Positions 7,691-27,283 of a stretch of 64,000 nucleotides of DNA are shown piece by piece. How positions within the stretch are numbered: the first letter of the stretch is position 1; each line of letters opens with the position of its first letter. The translations under genes and the position numbers were made by a program. Under the pieces are notes generated by a model. That model ran no database searches. It was given only the letters and a program-made list of their open reading frames with translations, and was not told where the DNA came from. Source of the DNA: Candidatus Parcubacteria bacterium (lineage in GTDB: Bacteria; Patescibacteriota; Microgenomatia; UBA12405); the NCBI GenBank assembly GCA_023396915.1, contig JAEWUV010000001.1, forward strand, positions 21,206 to 85,205, written 5' to 3'.

Positions 7691-7729
7691 AACCCAATCT
7701 TACCACAAAGCCAAAAGTTTAATTGTAAT

Positions 7730-7830: not shown

Positions 7831-7842
7831 AATATTATGTAC

Positions 7843-8313: not shown

Positions 8314-8354
8314 AGCCGCTATTTTAGCATAAAAATTTCCCGATAAAATAATAA

Positions 8355-8440: not shown

Positions 8441-8445
8441 TAGAA

Positions 8446-9228: not shown

Positions 9229-9237
9229 AAGTAATAG

Positions 9238-9441: not shown

Positions 9442-9773
9442 TAAAGCTTTGGGATTAACCTGTCCACCTCTTTTTCTAAATCAACCACACTTGCCTCTAA
9501 AGCTGCTTTTTTAACCAAAAACAATACCCTCAACCCACTCTGAAACTTATCCAACTTTTTACTTAAAACTACCATTAGTCTTCTCTTAATCTTATTTCTA
9601 TCAACCGCTCTTTTAGAAATCTTTTTAGAAATAATTACCCCAAATTTAAGTAATTTATCCTCTTTATCTTCCGTTACCACTCCAAAAAAAGGGGACGACA
9701 ACACCATTTTCCCTTTTTCTTTTAAATCCCCAAACTCCTTCCTTTTAGAAATCCTGTTTATCTTTTTCAGCAC
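9441..9773 (-). CDS. rnpA: RNase P protein component.
   Basis: Basic 110-aa protein immediately downstream of rpmH. Its stop overlaps the yidD start (ATGA). Confidence 0.8.
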   Translation of the reverse strand: MLKKINRISKRKEFGDLKEKGKMVLSSPFFGVVTEDKEDKLLKFGVIISKKISKRAVDRNKIKRRLMVVLSKKLDKFQSGLRVLFLVKKAALEASVVDLEKEVDRLIPKL

Positions 9774-9787
9774 AAGATAATTATACC

Positions 9788-9925
9788 TTAGGCACTAATC
9801 TTTTTTCGTCCCTTAGCCCTTCGTCTTTTCAAAACATTTCTGCCAGTAGCGCTTTTCATTCGCTTCAAAAATCCGTGAACCCGTGAATGTCTTTTACTTT
9901 TTGGTTGATATGTTCTTTTTGTCAT
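9788..9925 (-). CDS. rpmH: 50S ribosomal protein L34. Not in the ORF track because it is under 60 aa.
   Basis: Translation [45 protein letters not shown] is near-universal L34. Confidence 0.92.
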
Positions 9926-9954
9926 AAGTCGTATTTTAACATATAAAAAGTTAA

Positions 9955-10040
9955 TTATTATAAATTCGAAATCGTAATTTTTTGACGAATTTCAACACGC
10001 CAGTATTGACTGAGGCAAAAAATTCATGATAAGAATTTAT
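9955..10040. repeat. R1 repeat copy 5, 30-115 nt upstream of the rpmH start (minus strand).
   Basis: aaattcgaaatcgtaattttttgacgaatttcaacacgccagtattgactgaggcaaaaaattcatgataagaattt. Confidence 0.75.
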
Positions 10041-10051
10041 AAGTTTGCTTC

Positions 10052-10170
10052 AAATTATCCTCTTTCATTTTGTGGAAAACTCATTTATTATGATGTGGAT
10101 AACTCAAAAACAACTCCTCCGGTTGTTTGCAGTCCCGCTACTGCGGGATTATCCTTCCCCACACCACTGC
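10052..10170. promoter_or_regulatory. rpmH-dnaA intergenic region: DnaA boxes (TGTGGATAA at 10094-10102, TGTGGAAAA at 10071-10079, plus weaker ttatcctct/ttatccttc) and a palindromic hairpin TCCCGCtactGCGGGA (10133-10148).
   Basis: Direct read of 9-mers matching TTATCCACA or its reverse complement. The dnaA promoter and autoregulation region. Confidence 0.6.
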
Positions 10171-10213
10171 CTAATTTATTTTTTTAGTCATTAGAAGTTA
10201 GTTATTTTTATTT

Positions 10214-11554
10214 ATGGATTTAGATCGTCTTTGGAAAAATACTCAAGAAGAACTTAAAATTGTCATGGCTCCGGCTGTTTACCAAACATTTGTCAGTAAA
10301 ACCCAACTTATTAAATTAGAAAATAATCTTGCCATTCTAGCCTGTCCTAATTCCTATTTAGTAGATATCAACAAAAAACGCCATTATCAAACTTTTAAAC
10401 TAGCCCTAGATAACCAAACCAAAACAGATAATCATATTGAATTTACTATCCAGCAAACAGAAAAACAAAACACCTCAATAGACTCCTCTCCTTTATTTGA
10501 ATATTCTAAACAAAAAAACACTTTTCAGTCTGGTCTCCACCCAAAATACACTTTCGACACTCTTATTGTTGGTAATAGTAATAATTTTGCCTATGCTGCC
10601 GCCCAAGGTATTATCAAAAACCCCGGTCTGTCTTACAACCCTTTCTTTATTTGGGGTGGGGTAGGAGTCGGCAAAACCCATTTAATGCAAGCTATTGGTC
10701 ATGAGCTTTTAAAAAATAATCCTGATTATAAAATTTCTTATTTCCCCGCAGAAACTTTTGGTAATGAACTCATCGCCGCCCTTAAAAGCAAAACTATGAA
10801 CAAATTCAAAGATAAATACCGCAATCTTGATTGTATTTTAGTCGACGATATTCAATTCATTGCCGGAAAAGAATATATCCAAGAAGAGTTTTTCCACACT
10901 TTCAACAGTCTTCATATGAATGGCAAACAAGTAATTCTCACCTCTGACCGTAAACCCAGTGAAATTGACCACCTTGAAGACCGATTAGTTTCTCGTTTTA
11001 TGGGTGGATTAACCGTTGATATTCAACTTCCAGATTATGAAATGCGAACCGCTATTATTAACCAAAAAATAGAAGAAAAAGGCTTAAAAATTACCCCAGA
11101 AGCCGCTTCTTATTTAGCTAATAATATTGAATCAAATATTCGTGAAATTGACGGCAAATTACAACAAATAATTATTCAATCAATCGCCAATAAAACAGAA
11201 GAAATTGATATTAATTTTATTCACCAGTTTTATAGTCCCCAATCAAACTTTGGTTTTAATGACTCCAACCAAAACATTAACCCTCGTCATATTATTTCTG
11301 TTTGTGCCAAATTTTTTAATATTAAAACAGGGGATTTATGTGGTAAAAGCCGAAAAAAAGAACTTGTCCAAGCCCGTCATATTACCGCTTATCTTTTACT
11401 TAATGAAATTAATCTTCCACTTGAAGAGGTTGGTCGCCTTCTTGGGGGCCGTGACCACACCAGTATTATGCATGCCCGAGACAAAATCCACACTGACTTA
11501 TCCACTAATTCACAAATTAGCAAAGTTATTAACCAAATTAAATCTGCTTTTTAA
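10214..11554 (+). CDS. dnaA: Chromosomal replication initiator DnaA.
   Basis: AAA+ Walker A GGVGVGKTHLMQAIG and DnaA domain IV (ARHITAYLL...GGRDHTSIMHA). Confidence 0.95.
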   Translation: MDLDRLWKNTQEELKIVMAPAVYQTFVSKTQLIKLENNLAILACPNSYLVDINKKRHYQTFKLALDNQTKTDNHIEFTIQQTEKQNTSIDSSPLFEYSKQKNTFQSGLHPKYTFDTLIVGNSNNFAYAAAQGIIKNPGLSYNPFFIWGGVGVGKTHLMQAIGHELLKNNPDYKISYFPAETFGNELIAALKSKTMNKFKDKYRNLDCILVDDIQFIAGKEYIQEEFFHTFNSLHMNGKQVILTSDRKPSEIDHLEDRLVSRFMGGLTVDIQLPDYEMRTAIINQKIEEKGLKITPEAASYLANNIESNIREIDGKLQQIIIQSIANKTEEIDINFIHQFYSPQSNFGFNDSNQNINPRHIISVCAKFFNIKTGDLCGKSRKKELVQARHITAYLLLNEINLPLEEVGRLLGGRDHTSIMHARDKIHTDLSTNSQISKVINQIKSAF

Positions 11555-11833
11555 TCAAAATTTACTTATCCACAAAATTATTAGTTTATCCACCAACTTA
11601 TCCACAAAATTATTTTTCTTTTTCCCCCGAAACTTACCCCAACTCCATATTTATTTTATAAGATAATTAAAATCAAAAATAACCAAAATATCGCCAAATT
11701 TAGTTTTTAAACACAATTAATTTTCAAAAAACATGATTCTTACCACTTTTTCATCAAACTATTCCACTTATAAACCCCACCTAATAACTAACACTACTAT
11801 TTTTTTTATTAATTTATATCTATAATAAAGCCA
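11555..11833. promoter_or_regulatory. Candidate oriC between dnaA and dnaN. Three same-orientation DnaA boxes (TTATCCACA 11566-11574, TTATCCACC 11586-11594, TTATCCACA 11598-11606) are followed by an AT-rich putative unwinding element (about 11640-11830).
   Basis: Perfect consensus 9-mers read directly. The downstream stretch is extremely AT-rich with A/T tracts. Confidence 0.7.
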
Positions 11834-12949
11834 ATGAATCTCTCTCTTCTCCAGGAGAACCTCAACCTTGCCCTGACCAACGTTTCCCGTTTTGTTTCTT
11901 CTAAAAATCAACTACCAGTATTAAATAATATTTTATTGTCTACCAATCAGGGTCGTCTCAAGTTATCTGCCACTAATTTAGAACTAAGTATTAATTATTG
12001 GATTGGTGCCAAAATAGAAGAAGAGGGGAGTATCACTATCCCCTCAAAAGAAATCACCGAATTTGTTTCTTATCTACCAACAGGAAAAATTGACTTAGAA
12101 CTCAAAAACAACCTTTTAACTCTTTCTTCTGAAAAAACCAATTCCGAATTCACCACTACTCCAGCTACAGATTTCCCCGAGTTTCCTAAAATAAATCCTG
12201 AAACCATATTCGAAATTGATTTTGATCTTTTTACTCAAAGCATTAATCAAATTTCTTTTTCCGCTGCTCTTGATGACACTCGGCCTATTTTAACTGGTGT
12301 TTTATGTATTTTTGAAAAAAAATCTGTCAAATTTATTGCCACTGACGGTTTCCGTCTTTCTTTAAAAGAAATCAAATTAGAAATACCACTTGATATTAAA
12401 AAAGAATCTTTGAGTTTTTTGATTCCCGCTAAATCCTTAATAGAAGTCACTAAACTGGCTAAAAACGATTCAAAAATTAAAATAGGTCTTACATCTGATG
12501 AACACCAAGTAATATTCATTCTAGACGATATAGAACTAGTTTCTCGACTTATAGAGGGTGAGTTTCCGGATTATAAAAAATTAATTCCTGAAAACTACTC
12601 TACCAAAGTCTTTATAAATAAAGATGAATTATTCCAATCAGTTAAACTTGCCTCTGTTTTTGCCAGAGAGTCAGCTAATGTAGTTAAAATCAATATTAAA
12701 AATAATAATTTAGAATTAACCGCTAACGCCCCTCAGGTTGGCCAAAATTTAATTAAAATAGACTCAAAAACTGAAGGAGAGAACTTAGAAGTTGCTTTTA
12801 ATTATAAATTCCTAATCGATTTTCTTAATGTTTGCAAAAGTAATGAGATTCTAATTGAATTAAATGAGAGTCTCAGTCCTGTTTTTTTTCACGACCAATC
12901 CGACCCTTCCTTTACTCATATAATAATGCCAGTTCGTTTACAAGACTAA
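11834..12949 (+). CDS. dnaN: DNA polymerase III beta sliding clamp.
   Basis: MNLSLLQENLNLALTNVSRFVSS... beta-clamp N-terminus, about 370 aa, downstream of dnaA. Confidence 0.9.
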   Translation: MNLSLLQENLNLALTNVSRFVSSKNQLPVLNNILLSTNQGRLKLSATNLELSINYWIGAKIEEEGSITIPSKEITEFVSYLPTGKIDLELKNNLLTLSSEKTNSEFTTTPATDFPEFPKINPETIFEIDFDLFTQSINQISFSAALDDTRPILTGVLCIFEKKSVKFIATDGFRLSLKEIKLEIPLDIKKESLSFLIPAKSLIEVTKLAKNDSKIKIGLTSDEHQVIFILDDIELVSRLIEGEFPDYKKLIPENYSTKVFINKDELFQSVKLASVFARESANVVKINIKNNNLELTANAPQVGQNLIKIDSKTEGENLEVAFNYKFLIDFLNVCKSNEILIELNESLSPVFFHDQSDPSFTHIIMPVRLQD

Positions 12950-14688
12950 TTACTTGTCTCCACTGCATTTTCATCCCAGAATTGTGCTCCCTGAAAATAA
13001 CCTGGCCCAAAAACTTGTTGATTAGCAAGGAATAAGGACCCTGCTATAATTGCAATCAAAATTCCAGCCGACACTGCTACTGCCGCTTTTACTTTAAACC
13101 CTCCAATAGAAGAAAGTGCTCCCCCTAAACCATTAACTCCCTTCAAAAATCCACCTCCAAGCCTCGTAATTCCATTTCCCAACCCTTTTCTAATCCCTGG
13201 CCCTAATCTACTCCCTAAGTCTCCCAAAGATTTTTTCAAAAAACCACCTGTTGTTGCCGACAAGTTCTTTAATCCATTTGAAATATTTCCCATTAATCCC
13301 AATCTCATACCCCCTCCATTTGCCATACCAGCATAAACCCTCCCCATCGCATCACCAAGACTGTTCCCAGTAAACATTTTTATCGACCTTTCTATATTTT
13401 GATTTTGTTGGCTCCCAATTTTTCTTTGTCCGCCCATAAACCGGTACATATTTACTTTTGTTTCCCCAAAGAGAGCCCTTTTTCTTTGAATTCGCTCCAG
13501 TGCTCCTTTGACTTTCTCATCTTTTCTTAAAACCGCATTTACTCTGTCAAAAGCATCTAAATTAGAATCAGCTGGAATTTTTAAACCACCCAATACTACA
13601 TCTGCTTTTTCCGACTTTTCCAATATATCTCTTGTTTCTTTAGGAGATATATTTACATATCCCGCCGTTACATTAAAATTATCAACGGCAATTTTAGCTT
13701 TACCGGAAGGGTCTTTACTTAATATTGAATTTTCTTGATTTTTAATTTCATTGTCTAAATTAAGCACTTGACTAGATAATTTCTTTTTTACCCTTACAGC
13801 TTGTTTTTGCTCTTCGGTTATTTTCCCTCCATTTTCTTTTTTAACTTTTTCTACAAACCTTTCAGTCAAATAATTATCGACTGCCTCACGATGCTCAGAT
13901 GCCCATTTTTCTAACTCTAATGTTATCGCTTTAATTTTTACCTTATATTCCAATTGAGATATTTCTCCTTTAGCCACAGCTCTGGTTAAATCATTTATTT
14001 TTTCTTCATTACTCTTAATTTCTGACCCATCTATAATTCTTTCCATTTCAGTTTCAATTCTGCTTATTGTTTCCTTATCTACCTCACTCTTCCCGGATTC
14101 TTGAGCCAATTTTCTGCTTAAATCTTGAATTTTCCCCTTCACTAATTTCACATCTTCTTTAACTTTTTTATCAACAACTTCTTCCCTTACTACTGTCCCA
14201 TCTTCAGCCTTACTTTTATCTTCTGGTTTTTCCTCTATAACAACCCCTTCCTCCGCTTTAATTTTTTCACTTTTAAGTTTAGTTTGAGTCTCAATAAATC
14301 TTCTTATATTTTCATCAGCTAAACTTGGTTTTTTATCTAAAATATCTTGAATTTCTTTTAAAACAGCCTCACTACTATTATCATTTTTGGCTTGTTTTTC
14401 ATCAAACTCTTTTAATAATTCATCTAGTTTTTGCTTACTAATTTGCTCATCACCAATCTTTTTTTCCGCATCTGCTTTTCTTTCTAGACTATTGATTGCT
14501 TCGTCAACTTTGTCAGATATAACCCCTTTAACTAATTCATCGAGAGATTTTTTAAACTCACCATTTGGGTCTAACTCTCCTCCTAATTCTTTTAACTGTC
14601 GCAAATAAATTAAACCATCATCAAAAGAAATTACTTTTATACTATTCAAAAAAACAATTTGTCCTTCTCTGTCATTTGGTAACGCCAT
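12946..14688 (-). CDS. Hypothetical 580-aa protein: long coiled-coil N-terminal two-thirds, a Gly-rich (GxxG repeat) region and a C-terminal TM helix. Last gene of the VirB4 operon.
   Basis: E/K-rich heptad-like sequence, then GGGMRLGLMGNISNGLKN...GLGNGITRLGGGFLKGVNGLGGALSSIGG, then AAVAVSAGILIAIIAGSLFL. No recognisable catalytic motif. Confidence 0.4.
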   Translation of the reverse strand: MALPNDREGQIVFLNSIKVISFDDGLIYLRQLKELGGELDPNGEFKKSLDELVKGVISDKVDEAINSLERKADAEKKIGDEQISKQKLDELLKEFDEKQAKNDNSSEAVLKEIQDILDKKPSLADENIRRFIETQTKLKSEKIKAEEGVVIEEKPEDKSKAEDGTVVREEVVDKKVKEDVKLVKGKIQDLSRKLAQESGKSEVDKETISRIETEMERIIDGSEIKSNEEKINDLTRAVAKGEISQLEYKVKIKAITLELEKWASEHREAVDNYLTERFVEKVKKENGGKITEEQKQAVRVKKKLSSQVLNLDNEIKNQENSILSKDPSGKAKIAVDNFNVTAGYVNISPKETRDILEKSEKADVVLGGLKIPADSNLDAFDRVNAVLRKDEKVKGALERIQRKRALFGETKVNMYRFMGGQRKIGSQQNQNIERSIKMFTGNSLGDAMGRVYAGMANGGGMRLGLMGNISNGLKNLSATTGGFLKKSLGDLGSRLGPGIRKGLGNGITRLGGGFLKGVNGLGGALSSIGGFKVKAAVAVSAGILIAIIAGSLFLANQQVFGPGYFQGAQFWDENAVETSN

Positions 14689-14721
14689 TTACTAAATTAT
14701 AGCAACTAATTACTACGCAAA

Positions 14722-17007
14722 TTAAATTATTCCACTATCTAGTAAATCGTCAGGAGTAGGTTCGTTGCTGTTTGTTTTATTCTCAAACAAAGGCGTCGGT
14801 TTTTTTGCTAATTGTGGCGGTTGGGGAATATTGGTCTCTTCTGTTTTTACAAAAATCGGTTTTTGTTTTTGTTCTGGTTCTAGTACCTCCATTTTAGGTG
14901 GTACAAATCTGTCTTGTTTTTCTTGACTATCCAATCTAATCTCTCCTGATAAATTAGGCTTTTTAACCTCAGCTTTTTCTAACTCATCAATCTTTTTTTG
15001 AAGTATATCTTCTACTTCATTTTTTTGAACCTCTTTACTTTCCTCTGAACTTTCACTTTTTGGAGTTTCAGTCAGAGGCTGATTAACCACTGGCTGAGGA
15101 GCTGGAATTTCAGCTTTTGGTTGAGGAACTGGAGTCTCAGTCTTTGGCTGAGGAGTTGGAGTTTTTTCAAGTGTTTCCAATTTTCTTTTTCTCAAAACCT
15201 CTTCCGGGTCAGAAGTAATTAATTGATGTTCTTCCTCTGAAGCAATAACTTCTACTGCTACATGGTTCTGTCCAGCAAAAAAGAGACCTTGGCCTTTATC
15301 AGCGGTTAATAATAATTGTTTTTCTCCTTCACTTAAATAAAATACCTCACCCACCTGATCAATTGCCGCCGCGTGTTGTTTAAGTAAAATCTGAATCGAA
15401 CTATTAGTTACAATTTCTTTTCCGTAAGTACTCTTTAAAAAATCATTAACATCCTGAGTAATTGTAGTCACACCCAAATAATATTTTCTACCTCTTTTAA
15501 CTACCCCTCTTAAAAACTGAGCCGAATCTTCGTATTGCATCATATACCAAGCTTCATCTACCACTAAAATCCTTTTCTTTAATGTCTTTTTAACTATGGT
15601 CCAAATATAGTCCAAAATAATATGCATCGCTACTGGCCTCAAAGTTTCTTCTAGATTTTTTATCCCAAACACCACAAATTGATTGGTTAAATTAACTGTA
15701 GTTTTTTGATTAAAAATACCCGCAAACGACCCTTTAATATATTTTTCCATCCTAGCAGCTATCATTTGGGCTTTTTCTTCCTCTCTTCCTATTAAAGCTT
15801 TATAAACATCCTCAATCAAAGGTGGCTCTTTATTTTGGGTTTCTGGGTCTGGGGTTATCCCTTTTGCTTTATAAGCATCCATCAAAGCCTTATCTAAAAT
15901 AGACTCTTCCATTGGATCTAATGCCCCCAACATTACCTTCATTAATTTATGGACCGAAAGAGTTTTACTGTTCAAAGCATTCTCTCCTTCCTCTTCTACC
16001 AAAGACAAATCCATTGGGTTTATTTTCGACTCTTCATTGTAGCCAAAAGCAATATATTGCCCTCCGGCCGCATCGGCCAAGTCCTTATATTCGTTTTCAG
16101 GATCTATTACAATTACTTCTGTTCCAAACATCAAAGATCGCAATACTTCCAACTTAATCATATAAGACTTTCCTACGCCTGAGGTAGCAAAAACCACTGA
16201 GTTGTAGTTCGGCATGGAAAATCGGTCAAAAATTATTAACGATCCATTATGGGCATTAATCCCATACATTACTCCCTTATCGTCAGACAAATCAGAAGAT
16301 ACAAATGGAAAAGTTGTTGCCAACGAAGTGGTGTCCATATTTCTGGTTATTCCCAATCTGTCACTATTAGCCGGTAAACAAGTTATAAAACCATCTTCCA
16401 TCTGCAAAGTTGCTCTTTTACTCACTACCAACAAAGACCCTAATGCCGCCTCTAAATTTTTATTAATCCTATCCAAATCCTCTTTAGAATCTGCTGAAAT
16501 ATTTATATAAAGCCCAAACTGAAAAAACCTTTCTTCTCCTTTTACTAAATCTGCTTGTAAATTCAAAGCGTCTTCAAGCTTTGCTTGTGTTGCCGGATTT
16601 ACCAATCGACCACGTTGGATATCAGTACTTAATTCCGCCTCCATTTCTGTAATTTTGCGTCGTAAATCATCTAAAATCGCCTTGCCATCAGTTGGATAAA
16701 TATACATCGAGATATTCAGTGTCCAATCAAAATTAATCAAAGAAGACAGCCAATTCATCCCGACAAACCTTGGATAACCGGATACAAATAAGGTTCGAAA
16801 ATATTTATCACCAATTCTGACATGGTTAAAATCAACTTCCAAAGATGATGGGGCAATTATATCTTTAATCGAAACTAATCCATCGGAAAAATCTCTTTTT
16901 TTAGTATTATCAACAACTCCAGATTCCTCTGTTTTTTCCTTAGAATTACCCTTGTTTTCCACAGCCACAGTTTTTGGTTTTCTAATTATATTTTTCAATA
17001 AATCCAT
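14722..17007 (-). CDS. virB4: VirB4/TrsE/PrgJ-family type IV secretion ATPase (C-terminal 761-aa portion) with a P/Q/K/E-rich disordered tail.
   Basis: IAPSSLEVDFNHVRIGDKYFRTLFVSGYPRFVGMNWL is the CagE_TrbE_VirB N-region. Walker A is FATSGVGKS and Walker B is ILVVDEAWYMM. The tail has PTPQPKTETPVPQPKAEIPAPQP repeats. Confidence 0.85.
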   Translation of the reverse strand: MDLLKNIIRKPKTVAVENKGNSKEKTEESGVVDNTKKRDFSDGLVSIKDIIAPSSLEVDFNHVRIGDKYFRTLFVSGYPRFVGMNWLSSLINFDWTLNISMYIYPTDGKAILDDLRRKITEMEAELSTDIQRGRLVNPATQAKLEDALNLQADLVKGEERFFQFGLYINISADSKEDLDRINKNLEAALGSLLVVSKRATLQMEDGFITCLPANSDRLGITRNMDTTSLATTFPFVSSDLSDDKGVMYGINAHNGSLIIFDRFSMPNYNSVVFATSGVGKSYMIKLEVLRSLMFGTEVIVIDPENEYKDLADAAGGQYIAFGYNEESKINPMDLSLVEEEGENALNSKTLSVHKLMKVMLGALDPMEESILDKALMDAYKAKGITPDPETQNKEPPLIEDVYKALIGREEEKAQMIAARMEKYIKGSFAGIFNQKTTVNLTNQFVVFGIKNLEETLRPVAMHIILDYIWTIVKKTLKKRILVVDEAWYMMQYEDSAQFLRGVVKRGRKYYLGVTTITQDVNDFLKSTYGKEIVTNSSIQILLKQHAAAIDQVGEVFYLSEGEKQLLLTADKGQGLFFAGQNHVAVEVIASEEEHQLITSDPEEVLRKRKLETLEKTPTPQPKTETPVPQPKAEIPAPQPVVNQPLTETPKSESSEESKEVQKNEVEDILQKKIDELEKAEVKKPNLSGEIRLDSQEKQDRFVPPKMEVLEPEQKQKPIFVKTEETNIPQPPQLAKKPTPLFENKTNSNEPTPDDLLDSGII

Positions 17008-17009
17008 AG

Positions 17010-17708
17010 TTATTTGGTTGTGACCATTGGGCTGTAATAATTAACCTCTTTAAGTTTTTGGTTATCCGCTACTTCCGGGTTATATATTTTATAAAATAAT
17101 TCAGTTAACTCTTTGTTTTCCAAAAGTGAAACCTCCAAACCTAATCTCGAGAATAACCTTATCAAATGATCTTTTTTCGGTTCTAAACTCGCTTTCGCCT
17201 TTTCTAGAATATAACTTTTAGGATAAGGCAAACCAATATTTCTATCTTTTTTTATCAATCCTTTTAAACTTTGTTTACCCATACTCTTAATTCCCAATTC
17301 TGCCGAAGAAAACTTGACCACCACATAAAACGATTTAGATAAAACATCATTTCTTTTAACTATATCTTCGATAAACTTTCTATATTTTTTAATTCTCTCT
17401 TTCAACATTTTATTCTCCTGTTTTTCTTCCGCTTCATTCAACCTTTTCATATAAGACCCAATGTCTTTAGTGTCAGATTTAATTATTATTTGAACAGGAA
17501 AGTTTAAAGAATTTAAAATTCCACCGTAAGCCATTATCAACGCCGATTGTTCCCTCTCTGACAATAAATCAAAATTTACCGAAGAAACTCTTAATATTGA
17601 AACCGCTGAACCGTCTTTCAAAATAACTACATCCTCAATAATATCCTCAATCGGCAAATGCTCTTGAGTTGTACCTTTAATAGCTATTTTAAGAGGATCG
17701 TTTGGCAT
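17010..17708 (-). CDS. VirB4-family N-terminal domain fragment (232 aa). Probably the 5' part of the same virB4 gene, separated by a frameshift.
   Basis: LPIEDIIEDVVILKDGSAVSILRVSSVNFDLLSEREQSALIMAYGGILNSLNFPVQIII resembles the extreme N-terminus of Gram-positive VirB4 (PrgJ/TcpF-like). Its stop (17010-17012) lies 2 nt from the next ATG, which is in a different frame. Confidence 0.55.
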   Translation of the reverse strand: MPNDPLKIAIKGTTQEHLPIEDIIEDVVILKDGSAVSILRVSSVNFDLLSEREQSALIMAYGGILNSLNFPVQIIIKSDTKDIGSYMKRLNEAEEKQENKMLKERIKKYRKFIEDIVKRNDVLSKSFYVVVKFSSAELGIKSMGKQSLKGLIKKDRNIGLPYPKSYILEKAKASLEPKKDHLIRLFSRLGLEVSLLENKELTELFYKIYNPEVADNQKLKEVNYYSPMVTTK

Positions 17709-17722
17709 ATATTAATAATAAA

Positions 17723-18661
17723 CTAATTGTGAGCTATTATTCTAACTGGGTCAACAATTTCACCTTTCAAATCAATATTAACTCTATCAAAACCATAACC
17801 TTCCTTTTCGGCAATCAATAGATACCTTCCATTAGCCAGTGGAGTCGATATTTTAAACTGACCCAAAGCATTAGTTTTGATAACCCTAGTTGGATTCCCA
17901 TGCATGTCTTGAATTTCTATAATTACTCCATCAACTATCTTCCCTTCACTATCTGTCGCCATCCCTACAATTACATTGGAAATATCTGGTCTATTCGGCA
18001 TTGGAATACTGCCAAAAACTGCCTTTCCTGTGGCTTCCAATTTTTCTTTCTTTAAATTTAAATCAACTGTTTTCCTCTCTTGAATATTAATTTCCTCTAT
18101 TTTTTCTTCCGGTATCACTTCTGTTACTTTTCTGATTTCATCAGAAACAGGTTCAATTACTCTTTCTTTAACACTGTTTTGTTTTGGCTTTATTTCAATT
18201 GCCTCATTTTTTTTATTTTTAGCGATTTTAATTTTAAAATTACTCCCAACATTAGAAGTATTTGTTTGATCTATCTTTTTCTTAAAAACAATATCAGCGT
18301 TTTTATTTTCGTACAATTGAGCCGTTTCTTCCTCTTTTTTTTGAGGGCTACTTAATTCCAACCAGTCTTCATTTTTCTTCTTGTAAGTATATATTGTCGG
18401 AGCATAAATCGACTTTAGAAAAGCTATAGCCCATGTTTCCAAGGGCCTATCTTCAAAAGGAATAAAAGCCAACGCTAATCCTAAACCGCCGGTAGCAAAC
18501 ATTAACGGCCACTTAAATATCGCCAATAATTTCGTTTTATATATTAATATCGCAATTATTATGCCTCCGGCAGCTTTTGCAAACTGCTTTAACGTCATAT
18601 CTCCTACCAATTTAAATTCATAGGATGATATTTGTTGTGGAATCGGGTGTTGCATTTCCAT
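17723..18661 (-). CDS. PrgI-family (VirB3-like) T4SS membrane protein fused to a C-terminal carboxypeptidase-regulatory-like (CarboxypepD_reg) beta-sandwich domain.
   Basis: N-terminus QISSYEFKLVGDMTLKQFAKAAGGIIIAILIY...FIPFEDRPLETWAIAFLKSIYAPTIYTYKK matches PrgI family (PF12666) features. C-terminus GKIVDGVIIEIQDMHGNPTRVIKTNALGQFKISTPLANGRYLLIAEKEGYG matches the carboxypeptidase regulatory-like domain. Confidence 0.6.
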   Translation of the reverse strand: MEMQHPIPQQISSYEFKLVGDMTLKQFAKAAGGIIIAILIYKTKLLAIFKWPLMFATGGLGLALAFIPFEDRPLETWAIAFLKSIYAPTIYTYKKKNEDWLELSSPQKKEEETAQLYENKNADIVFKKKIDQTNTSNVGSNFKIKIAKNKKNEAIEIKPKQNSVKERVIEPVSDEIRKVTEVIPEEKIEEINIQERKTVDLNLKKEKLEATGKAVFGSIPMPNRPDISNVIVGMATDSEGKIVDGVIIEIQDMHGNPTRVIKTNALGQFKISTPLANGRYLLIAEKEGYGFDRVNIDLKGEIVDPVRIIAHN

Positions 18662-18670
18662 TACTAAATT

Positions 18671-19285
18671 CTACCGTAAAATCTCCGCCAGTTTCCAGTT
18701 TGATTTTTCATAATCACCTGGGTTATACCAATATGTTTGCCAACCCATTTGTTTAGGTATTTCTAAATTTTCCTGTTTATTATCTATGAACAAGATTTCA
18801 CTACTTTCAACCTCGGCTCTTTTTTGGGCAATTTCATAAATTTTTCTATCCGGCTTTCTGCATTTCTCTATTGACGAATCCGCAATCACATCCCAATTCA
18901 TGTTTGGAATCAATCCTTTTTCTTTAATCAAATTCAACATCCCTTCATACATATTTGTTAACAAACCCACTTTATATTTATTTTTAACACTATTTACTAT
19001 TTGCCAAATTCCTTCGTTTCTAACAAAAAAATTATTTACCATATCATCACCAATGGAATAATTATTCGGCAAATTAATCCCAAATCTATCTCTCATTATT
19101 AAGGGAAAATCTCTCAATTTTTTACCTTTTTCTAAATCTTTTTCAAAAATATCAAAAAAATCATCAAATTTTTGTTGTTGAGAATCCTTTAACCCTAGTT
19201 TTTTTAATAATACTTTCCAACCATTATCATCGTCACTCAAATCTTTTATCAATACCCCGCCAACATCAAAATAAACAAATTTCAT
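18671..19285 (-). CDS. HAD-superfamily hydrolase.
   Basis: FDVGGVL (DxG motif I), LLTN, KPD, FIDN motifs. Confidence 0.65.
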   Translation of the reverse strand: MKFVYFDVGGVLIKDLSDDDNGWKVLLKKLGLKDSQQQKFDDFFDIFEKDLEKGKKLRDFPLIMRDRFGINLPNNYSIGDDMVNNFFVRNEGIWQIVNSVKNKYKVGLLTNMYEGMLNLIKEKGLIPNMNWDVIADSSIEKCRKPDRKIYEIAQKRAEVESSEILFIDNKQENLEIPKQMGWQTYWYNPGDYEKSNWKLAEILR

Positions 19286-19313
19286 ATTTAATTCTACCTT
19301 AATCTATTTTTTA

Positions 19314-19365
19314 AGCCCTCCCTTTTTCAAGGGAGGGTGCCCGATAGGGCGGGTGGGTTTAATTC
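19314..19365. repeat. Composite GC-hairpin element, copy D (agCCCTCCCtttttcaaGGGAGGGtgCCCGatagggCGGGtgggtttaattc), immediately upstream of the 5'-3' exonuclease start.
   Basis: Shares hairpin-1 architecture and the gggtgggtttaatt tail with copy C at 25641. Confidence 0.65.
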
Positions 19366-19379
19366 TGCTAAACTACATC

Positions 19380-20270
19380 ATGTCTAAATTATTGATTATT
19401 GACGGTCATGCTGTTATTCATCGGGCTTACCATTCCATTCCTAACCTTACTGTCAATGGCCAACCAGTCAACGCTCTTTATGGGTTTTATTCCATGTTAC
19501 TTTCGGCCATTTCTCAAATTAACCCCAAATATTTAATTGTTTGCCTTGACTCTCCTGGTCCAACCTTTCGTCAATCAGAATTTGTTGGCTATCGGGCCAA
19601 ACGCAAAGCTCCAGACAGGGAATTAATTTCTCAACTTCCTCTTTTAGCCACCACTCTTGAACAATCTAATATCAAAACTTTTGCCATAGGTGGGTACGAA
19701 GCAGATGATCTTATTGGCACCATCGCTCGTAAGGCCTCAAAAAAGAAGTTTATCAGTGAAACTATAATTATCACTGGCGACAAGGATTTGATGCAATTAG
19801 TCGACTCTAAAACCCATTTACTTATGCCTCTTCGTGGTCTTTCAGAGACTAAATTATTTAAATCTCCAGATGTTGTCGAAAAATTAGGAGTAAAACCAGA
19901 CCAAGTCGTCGACCTTAAAGCTTTAATGGGGGACATGTCTGACTGCTATCCTGGCGTTGCCGGTATTGGTCCAAAAGCCGCGACAAATCTTTTATCTGAA
20001 TATCAAAATTTAGACAATATCTACTCTCACCTAGAAGAAATTAAACCAAGCATCAAAGAAAAATTAGCCAAAGAAAAAGACAATGCCTATCTTTCCCAAA
20101 AATTAGCCACTATTATTGACAACATCCCTCTTGATTTCAAATTCTCAGAAAGCAAATGGAGCCCGGAAATTATCTGTAGTCTCAAAAATATGTTTAAAAG
20201 TTATAATTTTAAATCTCTCATTTCTCGTCTCGACCAAGACACCAAACCCCAACAATCTTCTTTATTTTAA
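19380..20270 (+). CDS. 5'-3' exonuclease / FEN (Pol I N-terminal-like). The real start is likely the ATG at 19380 (MSKLLIIDGHAV...) rather than the track start at 19353.
   Basis: LLIIDGHAVIHRAYHS N-terminus and acidic metal-binding residues. The upstream in-frame codons lie within the hairpin element. Confidence 0.85.
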   Translation: MSKLLIIDGHAVIHRAYHSIPNLTVNGQPVNALYGFYSMLLSAISQINPKYLIVCLDSPGPTFRQSEFVGYRAKRKAPDRELISQLPLLATTLEQSNIKTFAIGGYEADDLIGTIARKASKKKFISETIIITGDKDLMQLVDSKTHLLMPLRGLSETKLFKSPDVVEKLGVKPDQVVDLKALMGDMSDCYPGVAGIGPKAATNLLSEYQNLDNIYSHLEEIKPSIKEKLAKEKDNAYLSQKLATIIDNIPLDFKFSESKWSPEIICSLKNMFKSYNFKSLISRLDQDTKPQQSSLF

Positions 20271-20271
20271 T

Positions 20272-21381
20272 ATGAAAAAAAATAACTTAAAAATTGCCCT
20301 TGTCCATGATTATTTAAACGAATTTGGTGGTGCTGAAAGAGTTTTGTCAGTTCTTTCAGAAATATATCCAAAAGCTCCAATTTATACCGCTTTTTACAAA
20401 AAAAACTCTACTGCTTACAACCACTTTAAAAATAAAAAAATAATTCCTTCATGGGTTCATTACATTCCTTTTTTTAGTTCAAAATTACACAGCCCTTTGC
20501 GGTTTTTAACTCCTTTAATTTGGGGAAGTTTTAATTTCTCAAAATATGATGTCATTATCGCCTCATCAAGCTGGTACATCACCAAAGGTTTTAAAAAAGG
20601 CCCAAATACCAAAGAAATTTGTTATTGTCACACTCCACCTCGTTGGCTTTATGGTTTTAAAACATCAGTTGGTTTTCAAAAATATTGGATAGTCAAACTT
20701 TATGCTATCGTCGTTGGTCATTTTATGCGTCTTTACGATTTTAAACAGGCCCAAAAAGTCGATATTTTTGTCGCCAATTCTAAAAATGTTGCCAATCGTA
20801 TCAAAAAATTTTATCGTCGTGATTCTGTTGTTATTTATCCACCAGTTTCTCTTTTACCAGTTCCAAAAGTTGAAAAAGAAGATTTTTATTTAATTATTTC
20901 TCGTATTGTTGGTGCCAAAGGTATTGATTTAGCCGTCAAAGCCGCCAATAAATTAGGAATTAATCTAAAAATTGTTGGCGAGCCAGCTGGTTATTATTCC
21001 GAATATAAGGAACTTCAAAAAATATCTGGCAACAATGTTGAATTTTTAGGCCGTCTTTCAGATGAAAATCTAGTTAAATATTATACCAAAGCTAAGGCGT
21101 TTTTAGCTTTATCAACCGATGAAGATTTCGGTATGACCCCAGTTGAATCAATGATGGCCGGTACTCCAGTAATTGCTTTTAAAGGTGGTGGTTATTTAGA
21201 AACTATTATTGATGGTAAAACTGGTGTCTTCTTTGACCAACCTACTGTTGAATCATTAATCTCTGCCATCAAACGATTTCAAAAATTAAATATAAAATCG
21301 TCAGATTGTATTTCTCAAGCTCAAAATTTTTCCAAAGCCAAATTTATTTCCAAAATTAAAAAATTGGTTTCACAAAAATAA
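20272..21381 (+). CDS. Glycosyltransferase family 4.
   Basis: MKKNNLKIALVHDYLNEFGGAERV, GT4 C-terminal E..G motifs (GEPAGY, FGMTPVESMMAGTPVIAF). The track ORF start at 20116 overlaps the exonuclease and was rejected. Confidence 0.85.
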   Translation: MKKNNLKIALVHDYLNEFGGAERVLSVLSEIYPKAPIYTAFYKKNSTAYNHFKNKKIIPSWVHYIPFFSSKLHSPLRFLTPLIWGSFNFSKYDVIIASSSWYITKGFKKGPNTKEICYCHTPPRWLYGFKTSVGFQKYWIVKLYAIVVGHFMRLYDFKQAQKVDIFVANSKNVANRIKKFYRRDSVVIYPPVSLLPVPKVEKEDFYLIISRIVGAKGIDLAVKAANKLGINLKIVGEPAGYYSEYKELQKISGNNVEFLGRLSDENLVKYYTKAKAFLALSTDEDFGMTPVESMMAGTPVIAFKGGGYLETIIDGKTGVFFDQPTVESLISAIKRFQKLNIKSSDCISQAQNFSKAKFISKIKKLVSQK

Positions 21382-21402
21382 TTATTTTTATATAATACAA
21401 GC

Positions 21403-22245
21403 ATGACTACTTTTAAAATAACCTGTCTTGCTGAAAATACCACCTATAGGCACAACTGTTTAGCTCAACACGGACAATCTTTTCTAATTGAAACTGATGG
21501 TTATAAATTACTTTTTGATGTTGGTGAAGTTCCTGGTGCCGTCGAATACAATCTTAATCAATTAGGAATTAGTTTAGATGAAATAAATGATGTTTTAATT
21601 TCTCACCGGCATATTGATCATGTGGGGGCATTAAACGAAATACTTCCAAAATTGAACAAACAACGTTTATTTTTACCAATACAACTTGGGGAAGATGATA
21701 TTAAAAACCACCCTTATAAATATAATTTTTTAAAGAAAGATAATGAGGATCAATATAATTTAGCGATTTCAAAAAAAGATTTATCGGTCATTGAAAACTA
21801 TCAATATAAAAATATCATTAGCAATGATGGCGTTGAATTACGCGATTCAATATTTTCAACCGGTTGTATCGGGGAACCAATGTCTGAACAAGCAGTAGTA
21901 ATTGACCAAGGCGATTTAGGTATCACTTTAATTTTAGGCTGTTCCCACCCAGGGGTGGAACCATTGATTAAAAAAGCTATGGAAGCAACGAAGAATAATA
22001 AACTTAGAGGAATTATTGGGGGAATGCATTATACTGATTTTTCAAATGAAGAAATGATAACCCACGCAACCAATTTAAAGCAACTTAACCCAGAGTTTAT
22101 CACTCCTGGTCACTGTACTACTATTCAAGGTTGTTCTGTTTTATCCGAGATCATCGGAAAATCTGTTATTCTATCAACAACAGGTTCTTTTGGAGCAGGT
22201 AATTCTGTTATCTTGGGAGAAAAAATTGAATTCGAATTCGTTTAA
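21403..22245 (+). CDS. MBL-fold metallo-hydrolase.
   Basis: HRHIDHVG (HxHxDH) motif. Confidence 0.75.
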   Translation: MTTFKITCLAENTTYRHNCLAQHGQSFLIETDGYKLLFDVGEVPGAVEYNLNQLGISLDEINDVLISHRHIDHVGALNEILPKLNKQRLFLPIQLGEDDIKNHPYKYNFLKKDNEDQYNLAISKKDLSVIENYQYKNIISNDGVELRDSIFSTGCIGEPMSEQAVVIDQGDLGITLILGCSHPGVEPLIKKAMEATKNNKLRGIIGGMHYTDFSNEEMITHATNLKQLNPEFITPGHCTTIQGCSVLSEIIGKSVILSTTGSFGAGNSVILGEKIEFEFV

Positions 22246-22246
22246 T

Positions 22247-23197
22247 TTATTCTTTTTCTAACCACTTCTCCGCATCCAGTGCCGCTCGACAACCTTCACC
22301 CGCCGCCACAATTGCCTGTTTATGTTTCACATTTACACAATCTCCGGCTGCAAAAATTCCTTCCATATTTGTCATCGTTACAAATTCACTATTTTTACCT
22401 GTCAATACCTGCCCGGTTTCCGATAAATCCACCAACCCTTCCAAAAATTTGGTTGCCGGTTGACTGCCAATAGCCACAAACAAACCATCTAAGACCAATT
22501 CTTTTTCTTCGTTAGTTTGATTATTAACCACTTTAATCGACTCTAGCATTTCTAGACCTTTTATTTCCTTCACTTCGCTATTCCATAAAATTTCTACATT
22601 TGGGTTATTCAAAACTTTTTTTTGTTCAGCTATTGACGCCCTAAATTGATCTCTTCGATGAATCAAATAAACTTTAGTACAAATCTTTGATAAAAAATTT
22701 GCCTCTTCACAGGCCGTATCTCCACCTCCAACCACCGCTACTGTTTTACCCCTAAAAAACATTCCATCGCAAGTGGCACAACCACTTACTCCGTGACCAA
22801 TTAATTTCTTTTCGTTTGGTAAATCCAACCATTTTACCGCCGCCCCTGTTGCCACAATTACTGCCTTACTTTCCAAAATTTCTCCGCTTTCCAACTCAAC
22901 CTTAAATTTCTCACTTATTTTTTTAACTAATCCCGATTTTATTTCCACTCCTAAATTCTTCACCTGTTGCTGCATATCCATCATTAACTTCACTCCACCA
23001 GTTCCAGTCGGAAACCCCGGCCAATTATCTACCAAAGTCGTAATTGTTAACTGTCCTCCCGGTTGATTTCCAGCAACTACTATTGTTTTTAAATCAGCCC
23101 TGGCATTATAAATTGCCGCCGTCAATCCAGCCGGCCCCGAACCAATAATTACTACATCATAAATTTGATTTTTTTCTTCCATAGATGATTTTAGCAT
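22247..23197 (-). CDS. trxB: Thioredoxin-disulfide reductase.
   Basis: FAD-binding IIGSGPAGLTAA, redox-active SGCATCDG, NAD(P)-binding VVGGGDTA. Confidence 0.9.
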   Translation of the reverse strand: MLKSSMEEKNQIYDVVIIGSGPAGLTAAIYNARADLKTIVVAGNQPGGQLTITTLVDNWPGFPTGTGGVKLMMDMQQQVKNLGVEIKSGLVKKISEKFKVELESGEILESKAVIVATGAAVKWLDLPNEKKLIGHGVSGCATCDGMFFRGKTVAVVGGGDTACEEANFLSKICTKVYLIHRRDQFRASIAEQKKVLNNPNVEILWNSEVKEIKGLEMLESIKVVNNQTNEEKELVLDGLFVAIGSQPATKFLEGLVDLSETGQVLTGKNSEFVTMTNMEGIFAAGDCVNVKHKQAIVAAGEGCRAALDAEKWLEKE

Positions 23198-23249
23198 TAC
23201 TTTTGGCTTTACTTTTTACTTCTTTAACCGGATAATTTAATAAACTGCC

Positions 23250-24170
23250 ATGATTAAAAAAACCAAAATTACCTTATTTTTAATTTTCAAGATTATCCAA
23301 GATAAGCCCCGTTTTTTGTTTTGGTTTTTTATTCGTTTTCTTTCCTCTCTTTTACCACTCCTAACCATTTATCTCTATTCCCGAGTTATTGAAAATATTG
23401 AAACTAAAGTAGTTTTTAGTACTCTTTTCTTTTTGATTCTTATTATCCTTCTGGTTCGTTTAGTAGATAATTTTCTGCGTTTAAAATCAATTTTTAAACT
23501 AGATGAGTGTATTAGTGATATTAGTTTTGATATTCATAATTTTTTTACCAAAGATCTCCATACCAAAGACAAAGAAGAACGCCATCAAAGCATTCAGGCC
23601 ATTAGAAACTTTTCCGATGCCAGCGCTATGACTTTAACTTTATTTCGGCAACCTGGAATCGACAGTATCGTTTCTTTGTCTATCATCCCTGCAATCTTGT
23701 GGTTTGTTGATCTTCGGGTATTTGTCTTAGAAATGGTTTACATCGTTATTTATATGATTATTGACTATTACACTACTCAAAAATATGTCAAACTCAGAGA
23801 TTTGCAAAACACTAAAACTGAAACTTATTATGGCAAATTACAAGAAAGTAATGATGTTGAATTAGAGCAAAAATCTTTTACCAGACATTTTACTCGTCTT
23901 TCAAACTGGAATTTTACAGAATGGTTTGTTCTCCAAAATGGTGCCGTTTTCTTTTATTGTCTTATTTTGGCTTATTCCATAATTGCTGTTTACTCTGGCA
24001 CAAAACAAATCTCGGACATAGTTTTAATCATGGGTTATGTTTCTTCCACCCAGACTTATCTTAATTCATTTTCAGATATCAAAGATAGTTTAGCTGACAT
24101 GACTGTTGCTGTCGATCACCTTGCTAAAAACAAAAGTATTTCCGTCATCGACCTCGACGATTTAGTCTAA
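23250..24170 (+). CDS. Membrane protein resembling an ABC-exporter transmembrane domain only (no nucleotide-binding domain encoded). Possibly a truncated or remnant gene.
   Basis: Six predicted TM helices. The N-terminus resembles ABC_membrane domain starts. The ORF ends where an NBD would begin. Confidence 0.35.
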   Translation: MIKKTKITLFLIFKIIQDKPRFLFWFFIRFLSSLLPLLTIYLYSRVIENIETKVVFSTLFFLILIILLVRLVDNFLRLKSIFKLDECISDISFDIHNFFTKDLHTKDKEERHQSIQAIRNFSDASAMTLTLFRQPGIDSIVSLSIIPAILWFVDLRVFVLEMVYIVIYMIIDYYTTQKYVKLRDLQNTKTETYYGKLQESNDVELEQKSFTRHFTRLSNWNFTEWFVLQNGAVFFYCLILAYSIIAVYSGTKQISDIVLIMGYVSSTQTYLNSFSDIKDSLADMTVAVDHLAKNKSISVIDLDDLV

Positions 24171-24171
24171 A

Positions 24172-24732
24172 TTAATTAAAAGGTTCATTAATTGCTGTAT
24201 CTACAATTAAATAAGCCTCGGTTGCTCCATGAATTAACATGTCTCTTTGTTCCGGTTCTTTACCTGCAGTTATTTTTGACATAAATTCTATAAACACCGG
24301 ATCAATCTCTCTAACTATTTCAATTTTTCTTTTAACAAAATCAACCAAATTCCCTGACATTTTCCCTTCCATATTTTTCGCAAGCCGTTTATCGACATCT
24401 TTATCCTTTATAGAAGGAAAAGGAAAGTTTCCATTACTAGTTTCAAAAGAATTCTTAATTAATTTTAATCCGAGATAAAAACCTTCTGTTATATCCCCAC
24501 GTTCTGTGTAATTAACCGTATTAACATCAGCAATACGACTTAATAATTTAATTAAACTCAAGTTTTCTTTTTTATTGGTAAAATCATACATTTCACGGCA
24601 CACCTGTGCCAAACCCCCAGAAGTAATTTCTACCAAAGTTCGTTCTGCGACATCTGTACTTATTGGCAAAGGAAGCCCGCTTCCTACTTTTTCCCCAATC
24701 ACCTTAAATTCTTTCATGGCGTATAGTAGCAT
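24172..24732 (-). CDS. Hypothetical protein (186 aa).
   Basis: Intact ORF with coding-like composition. No recognisable motifs. Confidence 0.4.
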   Translation of the reverse strand: MLLYAMKEFKVIGEKVGSGLPLPISTDVAERTLVEITSGGLAQVCREMYDFTNKKENLSLIKLLSRIADVNTVNYTERGDITEGFYLGLKLIKNSFETSNGNFPFPSIKDKDVDKRLAKNMEGKMSGNLVDFVKRKIEIVREIDPVFIEFMSKITAGKEPEQRDMLIHGATEAYLIVDTAINEPFN

Positions 24733-24796
24733 AAAGCTGTTTTTGGTTCTAGAGTTATACTAATAGCTACTTATTAATTAACTAGATTGCTAATTT

Positions 24797-25639
24797 ATGC
24801 CTGAGCTTCCCGAAGTCGAAACAGTCCGTCTCTTTTTAGACAGCCATATTTTAAATAAAACCATTTCTAATATCGAGATTTTAAACACTAAGTCTTTTGT
24901 CGGCGATCCAAAATTAGCTCTTAACCAAAAAATAATTTCTACATCCCGTCTAGGTAAACAACTTTCAATTCATCTAAAAAATGGTCTAATTCTTCTTTTC
25001 CATCTCAAAATGACCGGTCAGATTATTATTGGCGATTCAGTTTTAGGTCATCCTACCCCAAAAGAAAACAAGTCTCATCTACCCAATAAATCTACTCGTC
25101 TCATTTTCACCTTTTCCGATAGCACTAAACTATTTTTCAACGATCAACGCAAGTTCGGTTGGGTTAAATTATTTACTCAAACTGAATTAAAAAATTTTCA
25201 GAAAAATGTTGGTGTCGATATTTTGGATTCGGCATTTACTAATAATTATTTTTACAACCAAATCCAAAAAACCTCCCGAGCTATCAAATTAGTTTTACTT
25301 GATCAATCAAAATTTGCCGGCATTGGTAATATCTATGACAATGATGCTTTGTTTTTAAGCCATATTCACCCCGAAACTTCAGCCAATAAATTAACTAAAA
25401 ATCAATCTCAAAAACTTCATCAAAATTTAGTCGATTTAATGAAAGAATCACTGTTTCATGGTGGTTCTACCGCCAAAGATAATAAATATATTCACCCCGA
25501 CGGTTCTGTTGGTCAACATCAATATTTCTTTCGGGTTTATCAAAGAGCAGGGGAACCTTGTCTTGTCTGTAAAACGCCTATTAAACGAATAAAAATCGGT
25601 GGTCGGGGTACTTTCTTTTGTCCCCATTGTCAGAATTAA
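24797..25639 (+). CDS. mutM: Formamidopyrimidine-DNA glycosylase (Fpg/MutM).
   Basis: MPELPEVETVR N-terminus (catalytic Pro2, Glu3) and C-terminal zinc finger CLVCKTPIKRIKIGGRGTFFCPHCQ. Confidence 0.9.
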   Translation: MPELPEVETVRLFLDSHILNKTISNIEILNTKSFVGDPKLALNQKIISTSRLGKQLSIHLKNGLILLFHLKMTGQIIIGDSVLGHPTPKENKSHLPNKSTRLIFTFSDSTKLFFNDQRKFGWVKLFTQTELKNFQKNVGVDILDSAFTNNYFYNQIQKTSRAIKLVLLDQSKFAGIGNIYDNDALFLSHIHPETSANKLTKNQSQKLHQNLVDLMKESLFHGGSTAKDNKYIHPDGSVGQHQYFFRVYQRAGEPCLVCKTPIKRIKIGGRGTFFCPHCQN

Positions 25640-25640
25640 A

Positions 25641-25693
25641 AGCCTCCTTTTTTAAGGGAGGTCCCGATTTATCGGGGGTGGGTTTAATTTTCC
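25641..25693. repeat. Composite GC-hairpin element, copy C (agCCTCCttttttaaGGGAGGTCCCGATttATCGGGggtgggtttaattttcc), between mutM and the iscRS fusion.
   Basis: Two consecutive hairpins followed by the gggtgggtttaatt tail. May act as the mutM terminator and/or the isc leader. Confidence 0.65.
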
Positions 25694-25758
25694 TCATTGA
25701 CACATTTTTATTTTTTTAATAAAATCAATTCGGACAAGTTTAGTCCGATATAAACTAA

Positions 25759-27282: not shown

Positions 27283-27283
27283 T

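Follow-up and report, generated by a model that had tools for sequence, protein, structure and literature searches.

A PrgI/VirB3-like subunit with a C-terminal beta-sandwich in a chromosomal T4SS locus of Candidatus Shapirobacteria

The gene described here encodes the VirB3/PrgI subunit of a chromosomal, oriC-proximal T4SS of Ca. Shapirobacteria, an ultrasmall Microgenomates-group Patescibacterium, and carries in the same reading frame a transthyretin-like beta-sandwich at its C-terminus. This fusion is genuine, widespread and previously undescribed. The T4SS itself was already known, as were database labels giving one domain name or the other; new are the conserved two-module architecture and its breadth, which are undiscussed in the literature searched, where no description of a PrgI-sandwich fusion was found. 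By analogy with characterised VirB3 proteins, the sandwich may be tethered at the cytoplasmic side of the membrane as a docking module for a conserved partner, a reading to which we assign a probability of about 0.5. Only one cultivated Patescibacterium is genetically tractable, and its epibiotic growth requires the T4SS (PMC12102498, PMC12857230). A conserved extra VirB3 domain across a large CPR radiation, always in the core operon at oriC, provides a concrete, testable handle: a cytoplasmic sandwich would point to a new site of docking or recruitment where substrates enter the channel, an external one to a new envelope-spanning element. Unless a related locus is named, coordinates refer to the window, the whole stretch of 64,000 nucleotides that was analysed, and those of the main features are given in Table 1.

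Table 1. Coordinates of the fusion gene, of the parts of its product and of the genes that follow it in the operon
Feature	Coordinates	Strand	Basis
Whole ORF, PrgI/VirB3-like with C-terminal beta-sandwich	17723..18661	-	312 aa; stop codon 17723-17725
PrgI/VirB3 module, residues 1-95: conserved N-tail, TM hairpin, C-terminal amphipathic helix	18377..18661	-	Pfam, AF2, conservation
TM helix 1, about residues 27-42	18536..18583	-	Hydropathy; AF2 pLDDT 97-98
TM helix 2, about residues 47-69	18455..18523	-	Hydropathy, AF2, conservation
C-terminal helix of the PrgI module, residues 74-86, conserved	18404..18442	-	AF2, conservation
Disordered, hypervariable, K/E-rich linker, residues 96-221	17999..18376	-	AF2 block-mean pLDDT 44-65 over residues 91-220
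Transthyretin-like / CarboxypepD_reg beta-sandwich, residues 222-312	17726..17998	-	Pfam, AF2, fold search
TrsD-like/TraC-like protein, 232 aa, free-standing VirB4 N-terminal domain	17010..17708	-	NCBIfam, PF26593, BLASTP
VirB4-like ATPase, CD1110 type, 761 aa	14722..17007	-	NCBIfam NF045971, E = 1e-116; Pfam P-loop_TraG, AAA_10
K/E-rich protein, 580 aa, Gly-rich C-terminal TM region, last operon gene	12946..14688	-	33 nt after virB4

Domain architecture of the fusion protein

Counted from the first ATG of the ORF, the protein comprises 312 aa in three parts: a PrgI/VirB3 module, a disordered linker and a beta-sandwich. An identical public protein (P0001, 310 aa) begins at Met3 of the same ORF and is present on 14 contigs, the longest of 906,714 bp. 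Searched alone against Pfam, the 312-aa protein matched PrgI (PF12666; E = 5e-5, 24.2 bits against a GA of 27, residues 6-89) and CarboxypepD_reg (PF13620; E = 6e-7, 30.2 bits against a GA of 32.3, residues 231-293). As both matches fall slightly below the curated cut-offs, the domains were checked family-wide using A3, an alignment of 141 relatives of the fusion protein, in which PF12666 was matched by 139 sequences (best E = 3.4e-8) and PF13620 by 131 (best E = 2.3e-9). A structural model was built with AF2 on a diverse alignment (31-83% identity); with a shallower one of 116 sequences (identity 55% or more) the pLDDT of the C-terminal domain was below 50. A VirB3/PrgI protein fused to a CarboxypepD_reg-like domain had been proposed in the preliminary description of this DNA, and HMMs, structure prediction and fold search bear this out.

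In the model, helices span residues 12-42, 47-66 and 74-86, and the block-mean pLDDT over residues 21-90 is mostly 81-98, down to 70 at residues 71-80. [quoted passage not shown] Its best-conserved segments are the two flanks of the hairpin, those expected to grip TrsD/VirB4. The nearly invariant K25 adjoins TM helix 1 on its N side, K50-W51-P52, likewise nearly invariant, precedes TM helix 2, and E70-D71-R72-P73 directly follows it. Going by the VirB3 literature (PMC9259494, PMC12857230), the helix of residues 74-86 would be the expected contact to the VirB4 N-terminal domain or TrsD. Alignment of the family profile with the single pCF10 PrgI sequence in hhalign gave no signal, so that the homology to PrgI rests on the Pfam HMM and the gene order. 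At 312 aa, the protein exceeds the VirB3-like norm of 10-15 kDa with short terminal extensions, and this extra length is the respect in which it departs from the PrgI/VirB3 family.

Disorder was predicted by AF2 for residues 87-221, and the linker (residues 96-221) measures about 125 aa instead of the roughly 200 aa first estimated. Across A3 its length is 83-222 aa, and in other members it reaches roughly 450 aa. Mean pairwise identity of the linkers is 22% in A3, and 7.8% for the 312-aa protein against distant members, in which the linkers are P/T/S-rich; some linkers contain short conserved motifs. The final ~20 linker residues (LNLKKEKLEATGKAVFGSIPMP) are conserved. Despite its conservation, the stretch EKLEATGKAVFGSIPMP (residues 198-217, 18011..18070) has low confidence in the model, a combination that a docking peptide would be expected to show. 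This pre-sandwich stretch also resembles the Met-ligand region of cytochrome c (2d0s, E = 0.8), a likeness attributed to chance because a CXXCH motif is missing; the same cytochrome c stretch ('G..VWG.VPMPP', E = 0.8), likewise taken as chance, was the best hit when the PDB was searched by sequence with the family profile, which yielded no significant match.

The sandwich was modelled at residues 222-310 with a pLDDT of 94-97 (AF2, diverse alignment). It is a seven-stranded Greek-key beta-sandwich that superposes on the transthyretin-like domain of carboxypeptidase D. Foldseek matched it in the PDB, with a probability of 1.0, to the transthyretin-like domains of carboxypeptidases N, D and M (2nsm, 3mn8, 5aq0) as well as to CnaB2 (8bdw), 3e8v, SusC NTE and SlaB. 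AF2 and Foldseek thus agree on a CarboxypepD_reg/Ig-like fold, on which the preliminary description had made its proposal depend. Nearly all structural neighbours are extracytoplasmic (pilins, CnaB adhesins, the S-layer protein SlaB, secreted carboxypeptidases, SusC NTE, and the ER-lumenal NOMO and EMC7), and only a few are cytoplasmic (the small subunit of pyrogallol transhydroxylase, HIU hydrolases and catechol dioxygenases). The sandwich shares its fold with the carboxypeptidase D/N/M and CnaB domains at a sequence identity of just 16-23%, and differs from them in that only here is it attached to a T4SS inner-membrane subunit. Assignment as a CnaB-like isopeptide domain was rejected, as only the fold (8bdw) agrees and the conserved residues do not fit: neither the first-strand Lys nor the last-strand Asn/Asp needed for a CnaB isopeptide bond was found among the invariant columns. 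HIUase is characterised by a C-terminal YRGS-type motif, which is absent from the sandwich. A signal peptide, an LPXTG/sortase motif and Cys pairs are absent from the fusion protein.

Occurrence and conservation

A word-indexed search returned more than 1,000 homologues, the best 120 of which are all near full length (276-330 aa); those with names come from Ca. Shapirobacteria and are labelled either 'PrgI family protein' or 'carboxypeptidase-like regulatory domain-containing protein'. In an exhaustive HMM search of 1.84 billion representatives of clusters at 50% identity, 2,227 proteins reached E <= 1e-3, and 1,043 of them E <= 1e-30. Among the top 150, almost every match spans both modules, and a few short entries (e.g. 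P0148, P0130, P0132, P0265) cover just one end. Matched proteins are 151 to 647 aa long and full-length members 255-647 aa. The two-module architecture is shared by more than 1,000 clusters (50% identity) from Shapirobacteria, Woesebacteria and other Microgenomates, the range beyond the first two being drawn from a few source names. A scan of the GTDB species representatives with a narrow pattern identified 164 genomes, mostly of Shapirobacteria and some of Woesebacteria, Microgenomates or Patescibacteria, and a profile search that included distant members added names from Woesebacteria and the 'Patescibacteria group'. The fusion, whose spread among related genomes had been left to be checked, is hence not a one-off.

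Mean pairwise identity in A3 is 68% for the PrgI module and 60% for the sandwich. By motif count, the sandwich is doubled in 9 of 283 members (e.g. P0189, P0229), and it is always terminal on the T4SS subunit.

Separate N-terminal or C-terminal pieces exist in the databases (P0128, P0148, P0265), which would be in line with a mis-called or chimeric ORF uniting two separate genes, but these split copies come from an error-rich contig (L086), on which neighbouring genes are fragmented too, or from contig ends. The intact ORF, by comparison, is found on 14 contigs as an identical protein and in hundreds of independent assemblies, and we give an artefact next to no credence. P0128 was considered as a stand-alone sandwich gene and rejected; it is not a natural split, because its contig is riddled with frameshifts. 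A search with the C-terminal 117 aa only returned 21 proteins, all of them fragmentary.

The secretion locus

The fusion gene heads a tight block of genes on the minus strand in the order prgI-trsD-virB4, with the TrsD-like gene beginning 14 nt downstream of it and virB4 a further 2 nt past the TrsD-like gene. The TrsD-like protein matched the NCBIfam model TrsD (NF041427, 4.8e-11), the TraC-like family PF26593 and, in BLASTP, TrsD of pSK41 (E = 6e-7), and the positions at which it matches the VirB4 N-terminal model support its identity as the N-terminal domain. VirB4 is accordingly split, its N-terminal domain being a separate TrsD/TraC-like gene and the ATPase matching the CD1110 model only from position 179. 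Beyond the operon follow dnaN and then dnaA (10214..11554). No relaxase or T4CP was found near the fusion locus, and tblastn with the proteins of relatives detected no relaxase, pilin, VirB6-like or Big_5 genes in the 64-kb window. The locus shows the hallmarks of the chromosomal T4SS of Patescibacteria: it lacks a relaxase, lies close to dnaA, and has TrsD and PrgI near a VirB4 apparently of the Patescibacteria/MPF_FATA-related type.

Among about 80 related loci, 74 VirB4-like ORFs were recovered downstream of the fusion gene. The same operon is present in locus L003 and in the distant loci L087-L089, and in L087 and L088 (CP055308.1) its three core genes are embedded in a larger locus with VirB2-like pilin arrays, a 543-aa polytopic protein, large secreted proteins and a Big_5 protein. 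The polytopic protein of L088 is likely VirB6-like and has no Pfam match, in keeping with reports of VirB6 as 'missing' from Microgenomatia. Next to it, the proteins and domains of L088 that are predicted to be extracellular (1888..5986 and 11595..14318) are Cys-rich. In L003, the counterpart of the last operon gene (14094-16886) encodes 930 aa with a C-terminal NlpC/P60 hydrolase (VirB1-like role); the 580-aa copy appears to have lost this domain, the similarity between the two sequences being weak (23% identity).

Comparison with characterised VirB3 proteins

The founding member of PF12666, PrgI of the Enterococcus faecalis plasmid pCF10, is the VirB3 homologue of the Gram-positive MPF_FATA T4SSs. 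It aligns to this Pfam model in the register of the fusion protein (residues 8-91, against 6-89) with E = 1.2e-7, and has the same two-TM hairpin with a subsequent helix. Its gene lies immediately upstream of a CD1110-type VirB4; the fusion gene is virB4-adjacent as well, with the TrsD-like gene in between. pCF10 PrgI, however, has 117 aa and stops after the helix, whereas the fusion protein continues for 217 residues, and it has an acidic loop with K/R-rich flanks, in contrast to the basic loop residue and the E-D after TM helix 2 of the fusion family. The gene order VirB3-like / TrsD / VirB4 ATPase is that of trsC-trsD-trsE on pSK41/pGO1 of Staphylococcus aureus, and TrsC of pSK41 shares the 'RP' motif straight after TM helix 2; unlike the fusion protein, TrsC has 135 aa and is without a C-terminal domain. 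pSK41 is moreover a conjugative plasmid with relaxase and T4CP, while the fusion locus is chromosomal, adjoins dnaA and has neither nearby.

[quoted passage not shown] The fusion protein would likewise work as a small VirB4-wrapping hairpin, but the family has no sequence-level match to solved structures. That the C-terminus of VirB3 can bear a large cytoplasmic domain is known from VirB3-VirB4 fusions (e.g. Campylobacter, CagE; PMC9259494, PMC12624023, PMC12102498), from which the present protein differs in that the appended part is a beta-sandwich on a disordered tether and not VirB4.

The locus resembles the Patescibacteria T4SS described by Quinonero-Coronel et al. (2025; PMC12102498) in its apparently MPF_FATA-related VirB4, its TrsD and PrgI/VirB3, its place beside dnaA and the absence of a relaxase, as well as in the VirB2-like pilin arrays of its distant relatives. 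That paper mentions no C-terminal domain on PrgI, and the word 'carboxypeptidase' occurs in it 0 times. It reports only 22.6% of Microgenomatia VirB3 hits near virB4, whereas in the loci examined here the fused prgI lies directly upstream of trsD-virB4. The presence of the extra domain also suggests that the PrgI module of Microgenomatia may have been partly missed in earlier HMM surveys, or may have been the point at which these stopped.

Membrane topology and proposed function

Hydropathy analysis identified exactly two hydrophobic segments in the 312-aa protein, and a third TM segment was found in none of the 283 full-length family members; the sandwich, and with it the C-terminus, therefore lies on the side of the N-terminus. 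Known VirB3 proteins have two TM helices and a C-terminal helix, extend a short way into the cytoplasm at both ends and wrap the VirB4 N-terminal domain (PMC12857230, PMC9259494, PMC12624023). Over the family, the K+R counts are 2.0 in the N flank and 2.5 in the C flank (total 4.5) against 1.2 in the loop, which favours an in/in arrangement. In four Firmicute comparators (pCF10 PrgI, two enterococcal relatives and pSK41 TrsC) the flanks are rich in K/R and the loop is acidic or neutral, a pattern that is unambiguously N-in/C-in, and K25 and R72-P73 have counterparts in Firmicute PrgI/TrsC. The net-charge rule weakly favours N-out/C-out, because K50 lies in the loop and E70-D/E71 right after TM helix 2. 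We consider the odds for a cytoplasmic sandwich to be even or marginally better, and those for a sandwich outside the membrane to fall somewhat short of even. The earlier proposal of a placement at the outer face is unsupported by this topology, the VirB3/PrgI precedent being cytoplasmic.

In the arrangement we propose, modelled on VirB3 structures, the hairpin would reside in the membrane and its two cytoplasmic flanks would clasp TrsD/VirB4, thereby anchoring the ATPase hexamer, with six copies per machine by analogy with R388. Given two TM helices and the N-in/C-in topology of VirB3, the sandwich would be tethered at the cytoplasmic face within reach of the VirB4/TrsD base and the channel entrance, where it could capture and dock a conserved partner by fly-casting, the partner being either part of the machine or a substrate or adaptor. 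On this reading the sandwich would have no function as a host-specific adhesin. Pilin arrays of the Patescibacteria T4SS average 25% identity (PMC12102498), compared with 60% for the sandwich, which therefore points to a machine-intrinsic or universal ligand, whichever side it is on, rather than to a host-specific adhesin. An adhesin-like fold outside the membrane, possibly relevant to host attachment, had been suggested beforehand. With a mean pairwise identity of 60% the sandwich is unlike a host-adaptive adhesin, and the suggestion finds no support here, although an outside location keeps a fair probability given the extracytoplasmic neighbours of the fold and the atypical charges around the hairpin.

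The C-terminal tail of VirB4 was considered as the partner. This tail is disordered and comprises ~170 aa (residues ~590-761; 14722..15240, minus strand). It is hypervariable, but two short motifs are kept in most of the 74 VirB4 ORFs (loci L003-L083): (I/V)PQPPQL(A/S)KK and a second one, DYD(K/D)LFG(N/D)GIV, which ends the protein or lies close to its C-terminus. The VirB4 of the present operon has IPQPPQLAKK together with a degenerate ...PDDLLDSGII. Binding of the sandwich to the conserved C-terminal motif was rejected family-wide: the tail is missing from the VirB4 proteins of the distant loci L087-L089 (629-672 aa), whose fusion proteins keep the sandwich, and a motif confined to the Shapirobacteria clade cannot be the family-wide partner.

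The hairpin of the same T4SS subunit might instead be oriented N-out/loop-in/C-out, with the sandwich displayed outside on a wall-spanning stalk. An exported sandwich could be a structural element of the channel or pilus, replacing VirB8-like or adhesin parts, or a binder of the cell wall or host surface. A TM anchor followed by a P/T/S/Q-rich linker and CarboxypepD_reg is an architecture typical of extracytoplasmic modules, and both this architecture and the overwhelmingly extracytoplasmic structural neighbours of the sandwich speak for export, but the protein offers no signal peptide, LPXTG motif or Cys pairs. The P/T/S-rich linkers of distant members point the same way, yet VirB4 itself bears a P/T-rich disordered tail (TPTPTP..., PQPPQL) that is demonstrably cytoplasmic, so that such tails can be cytoplasmic here. 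In the charge pattern, the conserved loop Lys and the E-D/E after TM helix 2 are inverted with respect to Firmicute PrgI and the N-tail is poor in positive charges, to be set against the K+R count, which favours in/in, and the invariant K25 abutting the N side of TM helix 1. In Patescibacteria, VirB8 and adhesins of the PrgB type mostly escape detection, and VirB6 is rarely found in Microgenomatia (PMC12102498), leaving room for an exported sandwich. Such a placement, however, requires inverting a topology shared by every characterised VirB3/PrgI/TrsC protein and would move the two best-conserved, VirB4-facing segments away from TrsD/VirB4, and the conservation of the sandwich is higher than a host-adaptive adhesin should show. 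We regard this orientation as plausible, with the balance of probability against it. More tentatively still, a flipped VirB3 hairpin or exported tail in Microgenomates would surround each machine with a ring of stalked beta-sandwiches outside the cell, an unrecognised extracellular or wall-spanning T4SS element in which the sandwiches would stand in for the unfound VirB8-like and adhesin parts, built from the subunit that anchors the ATPase.

Both the cytoplasmic docking module and its exported counterpart presuppose a role of the sandwich in secretion. Alternatively, it could be a neutral or lineage-specific add-on, such as one that lends the protein stability, promotes its oligomerisation or binds a small molecule, with the PrgI module doing all the T4SS work. 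Transthyretin-like domains do include small-molecule binders and enzymes, e.g. HIU hydrolase, but the YRGS-type motif of the latter is missing here, a sandwich identity of 60% has been kept across more than 1,000 clusters (50% identity), and where the domain is duplicated, in a minority of members, it still sits at the end of the T4SS subunit. We consider such an add-on improbable.

Other features of the region

GC skew is negative in every 2-kb bin of the window (1..64000), with its lowest value of -0.53 at 2-4 kb, and does not change sign at dnaA, which would be unexpected were the origin beside this gene. No tRNA, tmRNA or Rfam families were detected in the whole 64 kb. At 25759..27282 on the plus strand lies the gene of a 507-aa protein in which an N-terminal Rrf2 (IscR-like) regulator domain is fused to a cysteine desulfurase (Aminotran_5), with NifU next; the Rrf2-cysteine desulfurase fusion also occurs in the related loci L001 and L003. 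A patch of low GC content (0.26-0.30) at 45846..51607 on the minus strand encodes a 1,039-aa Type ISP restriction-modification enzyme (Type_ISP_C and N6_Mtase), a radical SAM protein and a PD-(D/E)XK/Cas4-like nuclease, and is probably a defence island.
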